NCBI GenBank assembly: GCA_963733675.1
Contig: CAVTET010000004.1
Span: 608,001-672,000, forward strand
DNA: 64,000 nucleotides
Direction: 5' to 3'
Source: an uncultured Methanosarcinaceae archaeon
GTDB taxonomy: Archaea; Halobacteriota; Methanosarcinia; Methanosarcinales; Methanosarcinaceae
Below, piece by piece: positions 3,224-50,992 of this stretch. The notes below the pieces were generated by a model that was not told the DNA's origin, did not search any database, and saw nothing but the letters and a program-made list of their open reading frames with translations. The translations under genes were made by a program, and so were the position numbers. The number at the start of each line of letters is the position of its first letter. Positions within the stretch are counted from its first letter, which is position 1.

Positions 3224-5176
3224 TTATTCCTCCGTATATTTTCTAATGTAACCAAATGGATTGAATTTTTTGCCCCCGCCTTGATAGAATTTTCCGAAAA
3301 ATTCTACATACTGCAACCTAAGTGAATGCAGTCCGGGAGCGATGATACTCAAGACAGTGTTAAGAGCATGTCCGAGTATAAATACAATTATTGCAGCTAT
3401 TGCTACGAGACCGATCTTGGAATGATCAGCCCATATCATGCCGAAAGCAATAGTATTGATAGTTGATGCGATGTAAATCGAAGACAGACCGACTGCAATA
3501 ATACGGGCATAAGACAATGCGTTACCCATCAGAGATGGCAATTCTACCGGACCCTTGATACCTTCACCCATAGTGAGCATCACAATTCCGAGAAGAAGAA
3601 TAACAACACCGACATAAGTTAGCCCGGAAATAACACCAAAATAGCCGAGAGCTGCAAAGAGTACACCAAGCTCAATAATCATCCAACTGCCTTTTTCAAG
3701 AACTGCATGCTTTAATCCATGGTGTTTGGAAATGTTTATAAATCCAAGAATATACCCAAGGTTTAAATGCAACAGTCCTACTGCGACAGATACTCCAATC
3801 ATAGTCATTACCATGTGAGCTCTGTGGACAGGAAATGTAAATTCTTCACCGCTAATTCCTGGAAATAGAGTAATTGTATTCCAGAAAGGTAACAACCCTG
3901 CCACAGTTTCGCCTTCTTTGTGCAGACTTGCTAACGGAAATCCAAGAAACTCACCATAAATAATGCCAAATATAAATGTTGAGATCTGACAATACAGCAA
4001 AATGTTCATTAGAGGCTTCACTGCATCTGATTTTACGAGTGATTTAATCGCAAGCGCCATTGCTCCCAAAATAATTGCGTACCCGATATCTCCGAGAATC
4101 ATTCCATATATCAGTGGAAAAGTGATAAAGATAATCGAAGATGGATCGATTTCAGTGTATCGGGGTCTGGAATACAGATTCATGATCTCTTGCATAGGTG
4201 CCACTGGTTTAGAGTTATTATATTCGACTGGTATATGCTCTTCTTCCTCTTCTTCTTCTATTCCGATTGAAGTAACATATGCCCGACCGGATGTAGCATC
4301 ATTAACACTGTTGACAAGGATATCGTATTTATCGCTGGGCACCCAACCTTCTATAATAAAGGCATTATCAGATGTAGCGATTCTTAAGGGTAATTCAGCC
4401 TTCTGATTTTCAATACTTAAAACCTCATCACTGGCAAGGAGAAAATCTGTATACTGTGATCTTATGGATTCGACCTCAGCTTTCAGAGACGCGATCTTTC
4501 TGGAGGCTTCAGCCTCTTTCTGTTCGGTTTCCTTTAACAACTCACTTGGGACACCACCTCTTTCCGGAATTCTGAGCTCTTTGAATTCGAGAGCCTGAAG
4601 CACTTCAGCGACTTTAGATGCATCTTTCTTGGCTACAAATAGTACGACAGTTTTTGTATTTACATCAAAAAACAGTTCGTATGCCTGTGTGACGCGTGAA
4701 ATCAGAACTTCTTCTAAATTTTCTTTGACTAATCCTGAAAAAACCTCAAGGTTTTCATAACCGCGATAATAGTCAAAATCCAGATTAATGGACAAGAATG
4801 GTAGAAGTTCCTTCTTTTGAGCCTCGATATTCTTTAAATCGGTCTCATATTTATTGATGATTTTTATTTTTTCCGAGATGTCACTGTCCAGTTTATCCAG
4901 CTTTGCATCAAGTTCGCGCAGAACTGCATTAGTTTTCTGGACGGCCGGCATTGTTCGCTCAATCCCCAAATAATTGGAGATAGAACGGATCTTCACAAGC
5001 TTTTTAGATACTTCTTCTGCATTTTGAAATGGCTTGCTTATCTTAAAACCAGATTCATCTTCTATAAAATCTTCAATGTGTAAGAGATTAGAATCGTGTA
5101 ACGAATCGATGGTTTCTTTTAAAACACTTTTATGCCCAACAATTACAGCTTTAGTCATTCTTTTAGGTCTACTCAT
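3224..5176 (-). CDS. atpI: A1Ao ATP synthase subunit I
   Basis: Soluble N-terminus plus multi-TM C-terminus with [15 protein letters not shown] and [12 protein letters not shown]; likely start MSRPKRM at 5176. Confidence 0.95.
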
Positions 5177-45761: not shown

Positions 45762-46168
45762 ACTAAATTTGAACATATAGAAAATATTTTTAATTATTTA
45801 TTTAAATATAGCTGTTAAAGAAATCTTGTAATCAAAACGTAATTTTTCTAGCTTGAAGTTATGAAGTTACTATCCAAATTTTTTCCAATATCAAGTTGGG
45901 ACCAATCTAATCAGATGATACCATTTTGACTGTCTCGATACATATGTAATTATAAAATCGATGTGTTTTATATTAATTTGAGTAAAGAATGTTCTCAATT
46001 TTAGGTTAAAATGGCAAAAATGCACTGATTTTGAGACAAAAAAAACTGTGCCTCACTAAAAACAAGAAATTATATTATTTGTGGCAAATTTAAAGGGATT
46101 CTACAGGGCTGAAATATATTATTTTAATGAAAAAAGCCAAGGTGAAAAAATTATACCGGACATCTCGG

Positions 46169-46724
46169 TTATTCGATTAGTACAAGGCAAAAGATGTTCA
46201 TCGTATCGGATACATCCGTCAATACTTCGATAGGATAGCCGTTATTCTTCACCGTGCTGTAAACGTCTATACCGCAACTTTCCATCGACGGTCTGGCAAT
46301 CTTTGGATTCCTGCATTCCTTCAGTGTGCATTCAGGGCAAAGCTGACAGTGACCACCGCTTAGTGCAAAAGCCTTATAGTACCAGCAAGGAAGATATCTC
46401 TCTCAAGCGTGTTGATGACCTTTGTGCTGTCCCTCGTGATGATCTTTATCCCACTAGCAGGTCTTCCGTCGCTTTGTCGATATTTGTCGAAAAATGTACT
46501 AAAGGCGCGTATTCATAGCAATCTACCAGTTCCCTAATCTCTTGATGTGTAGGTGAATTAGGCGGACAGCAAAGGCTTTTGTTATACTCCGGACATCCAT
46601 ACCTGCACTTCCATCTGGTCCACGGCACTGTGACTATACTATATGTCTTAATAATCTTAGCATCGTGGGAGCCCAGCTTGACAGCCATCTCAACGAATTT
46701 TTGGTATTTTTCCAGATTACTCAC
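46169..46724 (-). pseudogene. DUF2284-like Cys-rich metal-binding protein, frameshifted
   Basis: RWKCRYGC..Y....CCPP..P in one frame; GHCQLCPECTLKECRNPKIARPSMESCGIDV in another. Confidence 0.8.
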
Positions 46725-47345
46725 TCCTGAAAATTAGTCCTTTTTGTAAGAGTTATAATTCTTAATTTTTTAAAAAACTTATTATCAAATATTGAAATGG
46801 CAGTAATATCACTGAGCTAAAGACTCAAAAAAGAAATAGGGCAATATAGATTACATTACAGAATATCTTTATTGCCCTGGAAATTAAGTGCTAACCCCTT
46901 TCTATTATCCATGGAGATAATATCTACCCAAATGAAATTAACAACGATAAAATATTATTTGTGCAGTTAATGAGATGATCAACTCGATTTTAAAGCTTAT
47001 TCCTTTCTTATTTTTCTATTTATGCTTGTGATTTAGTTTAATTAGTTCCAGATGTTCCATGAGCTCCAAATGTTCTAGAAGTTCCATAAGTTCCACGAGT
47101 AGTAAATCAGCAATTTTTTTATTATGATGAAACCTAGGTAATTTATAGATTTTAGGACAAAAACGATGTATAAATAAAACTCTAAAAAAGAAACTTTGTC
47201 AATAAAAATAGCAGCTCTGAATTCTGTTTTTTGTGGTAGAGTAAAGTTATACAGAACCAATCAAACGTTACGGATTTTAAGATACATTGTAGTAAGCACA
47301 GAGTTGACTTTAAAACTTGAATCTATTACAGATATCTAGATCTAG

Positions 47346-47637
47346 TTAATAGACCCATACCCAGCTGTTAAAGCTGGGTCTCCACACCCAATCACAATTC
47401 GGGTAGTAACTACCATAGTAGTAATGGTGACGCCATTCGCGATTGCCGTGGCCATAGTATCTGCTTCGGTAGCCGTGGTGACCTTTATGACCGTCACCGT
47501 AGCCTTTCGCCGTGGCCTTTATGACTACCATCGCCGCGACGAGCTTCAACTGCCGCCACTGTCACTGATACTACAAAAATAATTATCAGCAAAATAGCCA
47601 GCATCTTTTTGATTTTATTAGATGATTGTTTCAACAT
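47346..47637 (-). pseudogene. Small secreted Gly/His/Tyr-rich protein with one frameshift
   Basis: SD AGGTG and ATG at 47637, signal KKMLAILLIIIFVVSVTVAAVEA, shift near 47505, C-terminus CDWVWRPSFNSWVWVY. Confidence 0.65.
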
Positions 47638-48267
47638 TTGTTTCACCTTTTTGTGACTAAAATTAATCATTATAATGGAGTTCATTTTATAGTAACTATC
47701 GAAGCTGTCAAAAATTTCGACTAACTACAATATTATATGATTTTAATTAATTATTTTAAATTAATTATAAAAAAAATAGTTTCTGAATAAAATTTATTTT
47801 CACATAAAATGTTTTAACATTGAACAACATTTTAATATTAATCGTGTTTTCTAATAGTTACTGAATAAAGCTTTGATTCTTGCGATTTTCAGTGATGCAT
47901 AGGTTTTATAGCAAAATATCTGTATCCGTGAAAACAATAAAAAAACTATGTCGGTATAACCAACAACTCTAATTTTACAAAATTTTTGGTATACTTAGTA
48001 ATAGTACTGATTGAGTTCCAGATTTTTCATTAGCTTTAAGCTATCCCTAACAACCTATGATAAATAGTAATTTATCAATCTCTTACAGATATCTAATAGA
48101 TATCATTAGCCAATCCTTGGCAACAATTGAAACCATTTTTAAAAATAGGCCACCTACATTCTGATCCACAAAAATTTAAAACTTGATTAGCCTACAAATT
48201 AGTAAAATTTCAAATTTAAGTTTACATAATTAAGCAAAGTTTCAAAAGTAGACTATTATACTTAATT

Positions 48268-48530
48268 ATGAATTTCTGTTCGATCTGTATCAACATATAC
48301 CAATCTAGATGATGATTTTTCGGTTTTATTTGTGTCAATTTGTACGATAATTTTCAGTTTAATCTGTATCCATCTGTATTAATCTGTATGATGACATTCA
48401 GTTCAATCTGAATCTCTCTATTAACCATGGTATATGAAGATTTTCAGTTTGATCTGTATCCGTCTGTATAATCTGTATAACATACAGGCAAATTAAAAAA
48501 GTATACATGCCATTATCTGTACACATACAG
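48268..48530. repeat. Iteron/centromere-like array of ATCTGTAT boxes in about five larger tandem units
   Basis: ATCTGTAT at 48283, 48362, 48372, 48382, 48452, (48462) and 48471. Larger units start TGATGATTTTCAGTTTGATCTGTATC-like. Inverted CTGTA..TACAG at 48473-48487 and 48517-48530. Confidence 0.85.
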
Positions 48531-48533
48531 AGT

Positions 48534-48974
48534 ATGACTAACCGTAAGCGAATTAATATTAATATCCCAATGGATTTATATCAGCAAGTCACTAAATCAA
48601 AATATACTTTAACAGAAGCAATCACAGAAGGTCTCATATTGCTTTTGTCCGGTTCATCAAAAAATAATGACAATGAAATTAACCACGATATCTTAAACTT
48701 ACAGGAATCTAGGATTAATGATTTACAAACTCATAATGAGACTTTGATGAGAGAACTTGAAGACCTTAAAAGAAAAGAACCTGAGAATAAGAATATCCTG
48801 CAATTACATGAAGCTAGGATCAAGGATTTACAAGATCAATTAAGAACAAATCAGGATCAATTAAAAGAAAAAGATGAACAATTAAAAGCACAGGCCATCC
48901 ACATTCAAACGCTGCTTAATCAAAAGTCTATAGAAGCACCTGGAGCAAAGAAGCAATGGTGGAGATTTTGGTAG
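48534..48974 (+). CDS. Ribbon-helix-helix-like / coiled-coil protein with C-terminal WWRFW
   Basis: KRININIP.DLY..V (alternating beta strand plus helix), heptad-rich middle with duplicated ILNLQESRINDLQ / ILQLHEARIKDLQ, ends KKQWWRFW. Start at 48534 or 48507. Confidence 0.75.
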   Translation: MTNRKRININIPMDLYQQVTKSKYTLTEAITEGLILLLSGSSKNNDNEINHDILNLQESRINDLQTHNETLMRELEDLKRKEPENKNILQLHEARIKDLQDQLRTNQDQLKEKDEQLKAQAIHIQTLLNQKSIEAPGAKKQWWRFW

Positions 48975-48991
48975 GCTCGACAGTAATTGTA

Positions 48992-49474
48992 CTACTGAAT
49001 AAAATAACCAGGTTCAAATAAAAAATTAAATAATTGAAGAATTTTAATTTTCTCTACCAAAAACAAACTTCTAGAGAATTTTCTCCCTGATTTTGTCTGC
49101 GTCCGTACGCCTATCTCGACGTCCTTATTCAGGTTTTCTGATACAACATTTGTTTTTTTGTATACCCGCCTGCCAAAGTCTGGCACAACACGTCGTTCGA
49201 GTATCCAAAGACATATTTGAGTGTCTCCAGCTTTTGCTGATGAATTTAAGCGTTCCAAAAGTATTTTTGCGGCATCAGCATTCCGCTTTTTAATATATTG
49301 ATAAAACTGATAATATTTTCCAGATTTCTCTGTTTGTCCCCTTTTAAGCCAATCATTTAACGTTTGATACGTAATTCAGGCTGCGGAAGCAGCGAGAGCA
49401 TAAGTAAGTCCAAGTGGAATATTTTCGCTGATTTTTTGTTGTATTTCTGGAGTTAATTTCGTAGATCTTGTCAT
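48992..49474 (-). pseudogene. Phage terminase small subunit-like HTH protein, interrupted
   Basis: MTRSTKLTPEIQQKI...LGLTY.LAA.AA*ITYQTLNDWLKRG...WILERR..DFGRR; TGA at 49376-49378. Family assignment from recall. Confidence 0.55.
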
Positions 49475-49679
49475 TGATAGCACCGTTTTTACTCTTTGAA
49501 ATAAATATCAATGAATGTTGTATTTATATTTACTTAGTTCTCTTAGACACAACGACAGGATTTATATATGTAAAATCTAAAATGAGTCATTCTAAAGCGA
49601 TTTTGAGACTTTTTCTTGAGTTGAATATTGCTATAACCATGAAATAATCAAAAACAATTACTTTAAGGGCTGAGATTTA

Positions 49680-49804
49680 GAGCCTATCCTAAAAGTTTTG
49701 TAACCTAGTATAACTTTTCAATACACAATTGGAATGGATACTCTGATGCTGTCGATCAATTATACCTTTTACAGCGTGCCATTATTGACATTTCGGATAG
49801 GCCC
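49680..49804. mobile_element. 125-bp MITE with the TIRs of the IS5 element at 6806
   Basis: GAGCCTATCCTAAA ... TTTCGGATAGGCCC; no ORF inside. Confidence 0.75.
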
Positions 49805-50992
49805 GAAGTCAAAAATGAACGATTATGGGACGATTTAAGGCATCTTCTTGAGTGAGATATGATTATTCCCCTAATGTCAACTCATTCAAAGTTAGCTCTT
49901 TCAATGTTACCTTCTTTAAAGTTAGTTTTTTATCTAATTCATGCCATAACCTCTTTCCTTCATCCCAAAATTTTTGTTTATCTTGTATCAACTGTGAATT
50001 AAAAGCAACCATATTAGCATGGTCCTGAATACAGCCTTTTACTACCTGAACCTTGAAGACATGTTTGGTTATTATACTGTTTCTTTGTGAAATCCTCGAG
50101 ACTTGTGGGTATCAACGAAAGTAATTGTCTCAAAGTTAATCTTATGAGCTGCAAGTGAAGATATATCAACAGACATAGAAGGTTTGTTTAAAGGTATTTT
50201 AGAACTTCGAATTTTTTGTGAGATACATTGTTTATATATATTTTTAAATGTGATTTAACTAGTTCTAACCTATCCTGATTTGTCTATCATCCTTAGAAAA
50301 AGGAAACAGGAATTAGAAAAGATTTTTACCAGAGATTAATGAAAAAAAATGTAAAGGTGTTTTGATAAAATTTAAAATTTCCATCGGATGCACAGAATTC
50401 CAAAGATTTGGTTTATTAAAAATCAATAAAATTGGGGTGGTATCCCTTCTGCTAGCAATTGTATATGTTAGTGCCACCGCTTTGGATGCAAAGAAATTAT
50501 TCCAAATCAAATATTTTAATTTGCTATATGATTCTTTTTTTGGTTTTACCTGATTGTCAACGTAATTTTTAAAGAATTATGATAGACCTCTGGTTTTCAT
50601 GAGTAATTTATGATACCATTTATGAGCGTATGACATAATTTAGGAGTTTATTTACAATCCTTTTTATGAAATCTGAAGTTTTACTATCCCCAAAATTTCA
50701 ATGTAAACTCCATCACTCCACATTCACTACCAAATAACTGGTTTTTAATCTCAGAACATTAGTTAAAAATTTAGAATTATTCGGGTATCTGTGTAAGGAC
50801 TGCATTATTTTTTATATGAACTGAGAAAATTTTGTAGCACTCACAAGATACTTGAATAGTTGCGAAAAAAATGTAAGTAAGGAAAAGTATAATGACTGTA
50901 AGGACGATGACTGATAATAGTATCGATTTTTTTGCTTTTTCTCACAATTACTGTCAAATATATCTTCCCTATAATATACCTTTCTAAAACCG

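Follow-up and report, generated by a model that had tools for sequence, protein, structure and literature searches.

Introduction

In RocS, pSK1 Par and RacA, a coiled coil separates the DNA-binding domain from the C-terminal anchor, and one anchor helix does not suffice for membrane binding unless the protein oligomerises (PMC11500499). The same order of parts—that of RocS from Streptococcus pneumoniae, Par from the Staphylococcus plasmid pSK1 and RacA from Bacillus, with an oligomerising coiled coil and a short anchor (PMC11500499 and PMC13042908)—is exhibited by a protein family, one member of which is encoded at positions 48534 to 48974 of the DNA stretch analysed here, i.e. 64,000 nucleotides (nt) from an uncultured Methanosarcinaceae archaeon (GenBank assembly GCA_963733675.1, contig CAVTET010000004.1, positions 608,001 to 672,000 of the forward strand), this whole stretch being referred to below as the window. 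The organism represents an uncultured peat or soil Methanosarcina lineage. The gene, preceded by an array of phased DNA boxes, lies in a module of about 1.35 kb (48280-49619) left by a Methanosarcina mobile element. Its product is of the DNA-binding domain/coiled coil/anchor kind, and this architecture is new in Archaea and in its genetic setting. The reading we prefer, albeit tentatively, is that the protein may act as a motor-less tether or partition factor for element DNA, by analogy with RocS and pSK1 Par.

Several other described systems share some of these features. Repeats occur upstream of the gene in pSK1 par. The centromere-binding proteins ParG, omega and ParR of type Ib/II plasmid partition are ribbon-helix-helix (RHH) dimers that sit on helically phased short repeats at their own promoter, where autoregulation is expected, as it is at the present locus; they act, however, with an adjacent gene for a ParA- or ParM-type NTPase and have neither a long rod nor an aromatic tail. 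The repressor Mnt of phage P22, consisting of 82 amino acid residues (aa), combines an RHH domain with a short coiled coil and recognizes a dyad operator. In gpNu1 of phage lambda, which reads three cosB repeats, a DNA-binding domain is followed by a self-association region and a C-terminal terminase-binding end. We know of no single-protein motor-less system described in archaea, whose plasmids, proviruses and satellites are, to our knowledge, largely unknown as to their maintenance, segregation and packaging; a 2025 preprint reportedly deals with satellites of haloarchaeal viruses.

Results and discussion

Architecture of the protein

The gene and the parts of its product are as follows (all on the + strand):

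48534..48974, intact gene for a 146-aa protein with an RHH domain, a coiled coil and a KKxWWxFW tail (open reading frame, family alignment, ratio of nonsynonymous to synonymous substitution rates, dN/dS); an alternative start at 48507 would give 155 aa
48534..48650, predicted RHH domain, residues 1-39, with strand K5-I11 and helices 13-21 and 26-39 (model; homodimer contacts)
48663..48935, single long helix, residues 44-134, a probable coiled coil (model, alignment)
48936..48971, conserved tail APGAKKQWWRFW, preceded by the conserved QTLLNQKSIE (nearly invariant alignment columns)

The original prediction, made from the DNA letters and their translated frames, had described an intact gene with an RHH-like N-terminus, a long coiled coil and a KKQWWRFW tail, and the open reading frame, the structural model and the family alignment all bear this out. 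The AlphaFold2 monomer model, built on an alignment of 21 sequences, has a mean predicted local distance difference test score (pLDDT) of 84.2, with residues 1-12 extended, helices at 13-21, 26-39 and 44-134 and a short helical turn in the tail, which in the window reads KKQWWRFW after a Pro-Gly pair. The N-terminal part (pLDDT 77-91) thus presents the strand-helix-helix succession of an RHH fold within about 40-45 residues. The predicted homodimer of residues 1-50 scored 0.45, compared with 0.00 for the best of three controls. Of 30 solved homodimers, 20 attain this mark, and of 23 proteins solved as single chains, 1 does; since RHH dimers abound among the solved structures, this score shows likeness and is not independent proof. 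The dimer runs agreed in at least 90% of contacts, with a partner pLDDT of at least 70, and the best contacts (8:8, 7:9, 10:6, 11:5 and 33:33) describe an antiparallel ribbon with helix 2 packed on helix 2. By topology, the N-terminus is therefore predicted to be an RHH dimer, in which R6, N8 and N10, judging from the alternation of the strand, would face away from the core.

Searches of Pfam, PHROGs, NCBIfam, PADLOC and the PDB sequences returned for this protein coiled-coil noise alone, the PDB sequences giving no match outside the coiled coil. Foldseek with the monomer model returned nothing, and a wide VIA-align search, which hardly probed the small N-terminal domain, yielded only coiled coils aligned to residues 39-137 (Z 7.0-7.6). 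The closest Atlas feature clusters were RHH_1, NikA-like and DUF536, at 0.89-0.93. Concerning the surroundings, no open reading frame of 40 aa or more within 45762-50992 exceeds 92 aa, except for the gene itself, so that no space for an NTPase gene was seen beside it, the flanking frames not having been scanned against families. Neither was any conserved NTPase neighbour seen among 24 loci of relatives, in keeping with the claimed lack of such a gene and unlike ParG, omega and ParR.

Protein family

A profile search of 1.84 billion representatives, clustered at 50% identity, retrieved 391 family representatives at E ≤ 0.001, 194 at E ≤ 1e-10 and 18 at E ≤ 1e-30. A word-index search gave 21 relatives, none with a Pfam domain; one of them bears the source label 'chromosome segregation ATPase', a mislabelling typical of coiled coils. 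The alignment reveals three parts, i.e. a variable RHH part, a rod of varying length and a near-invariant end with the consensus N-Q-K-x-I-E-x-x-G-x-K-K-x-W-W-x-F-W, the variant LLPE...KKWWxFW retaining the last motif. The proteins span 113-241 aa, internal repeats accounting for the differences in rod length. A search for longer fused forms among proteins of 257-2000 aa scored none of 666 candidates, which is weak evidence against them. The synonymous sites differ between copies, so that the tail is conserved as a peptide; for the same reason, a role of the tail-coding DNA as an attachment or RNA element was ruled out. In the papers searched, the tail motifs WWRFW, WWKFW and WWQFW were not found, and KKPWW occurred in four, all of them, judging from titles, on antimicrobial peptides; nor did any of the titles and abstracts retrieved on Methanosarcina proviruses and small terminases or on archaeal satellites describe the family.

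The genome of the window (3.9 Mb in 15 contigs, 92% complete) contains 26 matches to the family profile. Ten copies, three of them identical and located on contigs C2 and C13, are frames that comprise 113-173 aa and end with the tail, whereas about 14 have decayed. Of 40 further genomes from the taxonomic family, 7 gave matches to the protein family and 1 to its partner, introduced below, with at most two matches each; the expansion is therefore lineage-specific, being encountered also in several metagenome-assembled genomes from peat and soil.

Serial decayed fragments of family 3' ends, starting near QVQTLINQK, were observed in L030 (7935-11263), L037 (7533-8386), L053 and L039, some with homologous sequence directly upstream; the pattern suggests repeated insertion or recombination at the tail-coding end.

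Box array, dyads and putative promoter region

The region upstream of the gene contains the following features:

47918..47925, + strand, outlying exact ATCTGTAT box, within ATCTGTATCCGT, a 12-mer also present at 48452 (window box count)
48264..48480, + strand, box array in four 37-nt units (box count, Tandem Repeats Finder, conservation in the relative L071)
48473..48487, no strand, dyad 1, CTGTAT-aac-ATACAG, upstream of the A/T-rich stretch (sequence; kept in L071 and L072)
48490..48506, + strand, A/T-rich stretch AAATTAAAAAAGTATAC, a probable TATA-box region (identical in the window, L071 and L072)
48516..48531, no strand, dyad 2, TCTGTA-caca-TACAGA, 3 nt before the ATG, a putative operator over the transcription start (sequence; comparable start dyads in L063, L061 and L020)

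The boxes are real: the window contains 12 copies of ATCTGTAT, compared with a mean of 2.54 and a maximum of 8 in 100 dinucleotide-preserving shuffles, none of which reached 12. Seven of the 12 cluster within 47918-48478, starting at 48283, 48362, 48372, 48382, 48452 and 48471, with the outlier at 47918. The claimed phasing at exactly 10 bp was likewise recovered, with the refinement that the box at 48462 is a variant, reading GTCTGTAT, and that the one at 48471 follows at 9 bp, the spacings inside the two clusters being 10 and 10 bp and 10 and 9 bp, respectively; Tandem Repeats Finder assigns a period of 10 to 48361-48389 and one of 9 to 48463-48480. Three further boxes are degenerate, namely 48328 (ATTTGTGT), 48338 (ATTTGTAC) and 48406 (ATCTGAAT), the first two being exact boxes in L071. 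The boxes are embedded in a 37-nt unit repeated at 48264, 48343, 48387 and 48433 (spacing 79, 44 and 46 nt; 65-100% identity to the reference copy), i.e. four units instead of the 'about five' counted originally. The 10-bp unit 48453-48462 is missing in L011, in L072 and in a contig from the RNA library of run X9; this natural variant lacks exactly one box unit, and the array changes by whole units.

The two CTGTA..TACAG dyads noticed at the gene start are both present, as listed, and the repeats do lie at the gene's own promoter, the stretch 48490-48506 being the putative promoter element. The dyads bracket this TATA-like region and the start site, for which reason autorepression by the protein is expected. 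In four RNA libraries, contigs span the gene and its upstream region (e.g. 48500-48936 in X18), but they are strandless and DNA is a possible source, so that transcription is not shown by them.

Sites at relatives and covariation with the beta strand

If the boxes were a property of the whole family, each homologue would be expected to have its own. Scanning for exact 7-mers from -320 to +30, with both strands pooled, revealed strong arrays in 6 of 21 genome members, where at most 1 of 300 shuffles equalled the top word, and in 6 of 42 metagenome members, counted without redundancy, where none of 200 shuffles did so, the two sets overlapping in at least two lineages. A scan permitting one mismatch proved too noisy in A/T-rich DNA and was replaced by exact words compared with shuffles. 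The boxes of L003, L014, L015, L025, L063 and L023 are distinct and spaced at 10-11 or 20-22 bp; the array words comprise TCTGTA (window), CTGTAC, TGAGCA, TGTGTA, ACTTCC and GGGAGT, the last at the family copy C7:88112, and CAGATCT occurs four times, at intervals of 20, 20 and 11 bp. The expectation that homologues possess their own upstream repeats was thus confirmed for these members, with words of their own, and failed as a universal rule. In many more members, arms of 6-8 bp enclose a spacer of about 10 nt, rich in A/T and located at -37 to -13, which we read as a TATA box.

The second expectation, that the sites would follow the residues of the beta strand, was substantiated for the dyad arms. 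The strand KRKISAWIP goes with the arm GGAGACA in all three members, although these are less than 85% identical to each other, KKKIGAWIP with GGGAACA, KRKICVWVS with TTGGAAACA (two members) and KRKISVWVP with CCTGCATA (two members), while RININI (window, L011, L012 and L071) goes with TCTGTA and RINIRI with CTGTAC. At the level of sequence, the dyad arms are thereby shown to covary with the putative DNA-reading strand. Taken together, the well-supported core of this study is that an RHH dimer binds DNA at specific sites and regulates its own gene at the TATA region; both are very probably correct. Observed directly are the repeats, the family with its synteny and covariation and, in silico, the fold topology, whereas DNA binding, autorepression, the partner of the tail and the biological role are inferences.

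The dyads that in many members bracket the spacer at about -37 to -13, and in the window flank the TATA-like stretch, would also be expected of a plain transcription repressor resembling Mnt, in which an RHH domain is likewise followed by a coiled-coil oligomerisation region and the operator is a dyad. Such a protein would control its own promoter and, in an excised circle, the operon of integrase and replication genes, the diversity of boxes reflecting immunity specificities. Recognition does diversify across the family in the manner of immunity repressors, and the gene order described below places the gene at an element end that circularisation would join to the integrase side. Mnt, however, has a short coiled coil, no conserved terminal peptide and a single operator instead of an array, and a mere repressor would leave unexplained both the near-invariant KKxWWxFW tail on a long variable rod and arrays of up to ten phased boxes over 200 bp. 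We consider this explanation rather unlikely.

Two further observations concern the upstream regions of relatives. About eight units of GYTCCA-type words with a periodicity of 9 nt occur 125-210 nt upstream of some family copies—L008, about 1095-1170 (the C13/C2 copies), L012, about 4100-4160, and, in reverse orientation, upstream in L004—and are unrelated to the boxes near the starts of those genes. In L025 (5000-5690), the 5' end of the family gene with its leader is tandemly duplicated, seven GGAAGT-type boxes lying between the truncated and the full copy.

The module and its terminase-like partner

Downstream of the gene, the module contains:

48992..49474, - strand, convergent pseudogene of a small-terminase-like helix-turn-helix protein, the 3' ends of the two genes being 17 nt apart (homology to intact paralogues)
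49475..49619, - strand, conserved upstream region of the terminase-like gene and the module end common to L071 and about 30 genomic copies (similarity)

The similarity between the window and L071 spans exactly 48280-49619, at 77% identity and between different flanks, and takes in the array and both genes, together with the region upstream of the partner. Within 48275-48480, 48 of 56 box positions are identical, compared with 102 of 150 non-box positions (Fisher p 0.013), all 8 differing box positions belonging to one deleted box. The coding dS between the two is 0.36, and with a dN/dS of 0.09-0.36 versus its orthologues, the gene is under purifying selection. In its closest relative (L011 and L072; 94% identity), codon 26 is a stop in frame and one 10-bp box is missing. 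The partner of the window is broken by a TGA in frame at codon 33 and, compared with its relatives, by 1-nt deletions. The window shares this state with L073 and L074, where the family gene is open and the partner has a stop, both genes being open in L071.

It is this partner that departs from the 'one-protein' system originally proposed: a convergent gene of about 140 aa directly downstream is the sole conserved neighbour of the family gene. It was found convergent and adjacent, within 700 nt, in 12 of 24 non-redundant genome loci (four near-duplicates dropped) and in 14 of 28 metagenome loci, i.e. those of the 42 with at least 600 nt downstream, the other 14 being too short. The neighbour families common to at least 3 of the 24 loci were the terminase-like gene, a frame overlapping it and a transposase of the IS240 type, a label taken from the Pfam matches of like proteins. 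An intact paralogue of the partner matches phrog_4102 ('terminase small subunit') with E 1.4e-22; the window copy, which has one internal TGA, also matches, and C13:20750-21196 is an example of an intact paralogue. A homologue in Methanobacterium virus PhiF3 (27% identity, E 1e-8) directly precedes a putative large terminase. The partner model (pLDDT 67) has the small terminase Sf6 gp1 as its top, although weak, fold match (probability 0.77, E 0.7, template modelling score 0.41-0.48). The window's genome, at 92% completeness, contains 31 matches to phrog_4102 and none to the large-terminase families PF03237 and PF03354, whereas in PhiF3 the setting is next to a large terminase. In M. acetivorans no match for the partner family was found. 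The terminase-like protein was also considered as the reader of the boxes and ruled out, being far more conserved than they are: its mean column identity is 71%, compared with 37% for the family alignment, so that it cannot specify them.

Carrier elements

The suspected mobile-element setting is substantiated by integrase-bearing elements that carry the terminase-like gene, the following four in the genome of the window:

C4:167500-174800, integrative element L065
C1:1066200-1073500, integrative element L066
C1:1025300-1035300, integrative element L067
C1:607600-615200, integrative element L068

These elements measure about 7-10 kb, and their terminase-like gene closes an operon that also encodes an integrase, a family A polymerase, often broken, and either a DnaG-type primase or a D5-type helicase; the family gene, where present, lies beyond the terminase-like gene at the element end. 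No capsid genes were seen in the carrier elements. Judged from genes alone, L065-L068 have the content of satellites of the phage-inducible chromosomal island (PICI) type, namely integrase, replication and small-terminase genes, with those for capsids and a large terminase missing, and look like candidate satellites of tailed archaeal viruses. No tRNA genes occur within L065-L069, and pairwise blastn of the elements revealed module shuffling without finding attachment sites. On the plasmid-like contig C13 (50 kb), the terminase-like gene is accompanied by Orc1/Cdc6 and a primase-helicase. This contig and C2 (14 kb) share three identical blocks of more than 10 kb, each with the family gene, the terminase-like gene, a PAP2 protein and a beta-propeller protein; two of the three, inverted, are on C13, and the block is possibly a plasmid or a recently duplicated element. 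On one IMG/VR contig, a large terminase, an integrase fragment and the family gene occur together, the family gene being located about 5 kb from the large terminase, beyond the integrase fragment.

With primase, helicase, polymerase or Orc1/Cdc6 genes in these elements and with phased direct repeats resembling iterons, the protein might be thought of as an iteron-binding replication or copy-control factor and the array as an origin or handcuffing site. The array, however, lies at the element end opposite to the replication genes, the protein contains no initiator domain and most relatives lack arrays, which makes this explanation highly improbable.

Alternatively, the protein could be an adaptor for packaging specificity. 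The private boxes would mark the element DNA and the constant tail would recruit the small-terminase-like partner or the terminase of a helper virus, which would allow a satellite-like element without a capsid to have its DNA packaged. Array, gene and terminase-like gene have been inherited as one block by the window and L071 (48280-49619), and the convergent pairing, the phrog_4102 and PhiF3 homologies and the Sf6 fold match all point in the same direction, as do host elements with an integrase, primase, helicase, family A polymerase and terminal terminase-like gene but no capsid genes, in a genome rich in partner-family matches and free of matches to the two large-terminase families. Variable DNA recognition combined with a constant tail and a constant partner would suit an adaptor, and the domain order resembles that of lambda gpNu1. 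When compared with small terminases and satellite factors (lambda gpNu1, Sf6 gp1, PICI TerS and Rpp), though, the likeness lies in the neighbouring gene, a small-terminase homologue, and in the element, whereas the RHH/rod/tail protein itself has no sequence or fold match to them; a packaging role for it is therefore speculation. Half of the members have no nearby partner; an intact gene stands beside a broken partner in the window, L073 and L074; in genome G037 the family was matched but not the partner; the viral contig with a large terminase has the family gene about 5 kb off, past an integrase fragment; no helper virus has been identified; and the dyads over the gene's own TATA region indicate a regulator. 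On balance we regard this role as unlikely, although the packaging model is kept, because the association with a small terminase is too strong to ignore and most relatives have no arrays.

Around the module of the window, no remnants of other element genes were found. At 47342-47685 (- strand), two overlapping small frames—one of 63 aa with a hydrophobic, signal-like N-terminus, the other of 67 aa with many His, Gly and Tyr residues—appear to derive from a single small secreted protein by a frameshift; similar frames lie upstream of the family copies C13:21287, C13:45057 and C7:88112. The segments 46820-47180, 47550-47870 and 50420-50773 are short dispersed repeats resembling miniature inverted-repeat transposable elements, present in dozens of copies at 70-90% identity on all large contigs.

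A putative tether for element DNA

The reading as a motor-less tether or partition factor could operate in the following way. The two-stranded ribbon of the RHH dimer, with R6, N8 and N10 outward, would read the TCTGTA boxes, and the upstream boxes, phased at 10 bp, would load many dimers on one face of the DNA. The helix of about 90 residues would pair into a rod, at the end of which the conserved Pro-Gly, two lysines and WWxFW may act as an anchoring peptide, the partner we favour being the anionic membrane of archaea. With one array carrying many weak anchors, the element DNA would be tethered, so that an episomal form could be kept or distributed without a motor.

Basic-aromatic composition is a membrane-seeking property of interfacial peptides, and the tether is favoured because the tail, with two basic and four aromatic residues after Pro-Gly, has this composition. 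It is favoured, too, because the rod varies freely in length, as a spacer would, because the arrays would give the multivalency that RocS needs for membrane binding and because RocS, pSK1 Par and RacA work with this domain order and no dedicated motor. Neither RocS and pSK1 Par nor the present family have a dedicated NTPase gene, and the likeness may extend to a glutamine-bearing stretch before the anchor, Q120, Q125 and Q130 here corresponding to the three glutamines of DUF536 in RocS and pSK1 Par. In this connection, the only two matches to DUF536 (PF04394) in the whole genome, weak as they are, fall inside family genes (C7:47543-48046 and C13:21287-21694) just before the tail, which speaks for the tether as well. 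Finally, the gene survives under selection where its partner is broken. The differences from RocS and pSK1 Par are nonetheless clear: these have a MerR-type winged helix instead of an RHH topology, the anchor of the RocS type is a MinD-like amphipathic helix instead of an 8-residue Lys/Trp/Phe peptide, and here the host is archaeal and the carriers are integrative virus-related elements.

Several findings weigh against the tether or the fold on which it depends. No RHH sequence model matched the protein at E ≤ 10 or the 21 members at E ≤ 1, and the dimer score may mirror a resemblance to solved RHH dimers. Both DUF536 matches, with 14.5 and 10.1 bits, stay below the cut-off of 20.7 bits, and the Pfam search gave none for the window's own protein. 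The phased direct repeats beside the gene that are expected of a partition locus are present at the window copy, whereas the minority of relatives with strong arrays (6/21 and 6/42) means that a centromere-like array is not a family trait; a perfect dyad within -70 to +30 that at most 10 of 200 shuffles matched was found in only 9 of 63 members. Being only 8 residues long, the tail might just as well bind a protein. Integrases are present in many host elements, and partition would thus matter only after excision or in plasmid-like forms such as C13. The pairing with the terminase-like gene, in 26 of 52 loci, is not accounted for by a tether.

Significance

The family, with 391 clusters at 50% identity, is large, and Pfam, NCBIfam, PHROGs and PADLOC contain no match to it. 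With a protein of 146 aa, an array of 200 bp, a tail of 8 residues and natural specificity variants at hand, the system offers a compact model and a possible entry point to the satellite-like elements of methanogens. In the widest reading, which we put forward as doubtful, peat and soil Methanosarcina would harbour a new class of capsid-less integrative elements whose end module is a two-part DNA-addressing device: the RHH/coiled-coil protein and its private box array would form the address, and the KKxWWxFW tail would plug this address into a shared machine, either the membrane or an orphan small terminase hijacking a helper virus. If this is true with the membrane, it would be the first motor-less partition or tether system in archaea; if true with the orphan small terminase, the elements would be the first archaeal satellites of tailed viruses to possess a specificity factor of their own.

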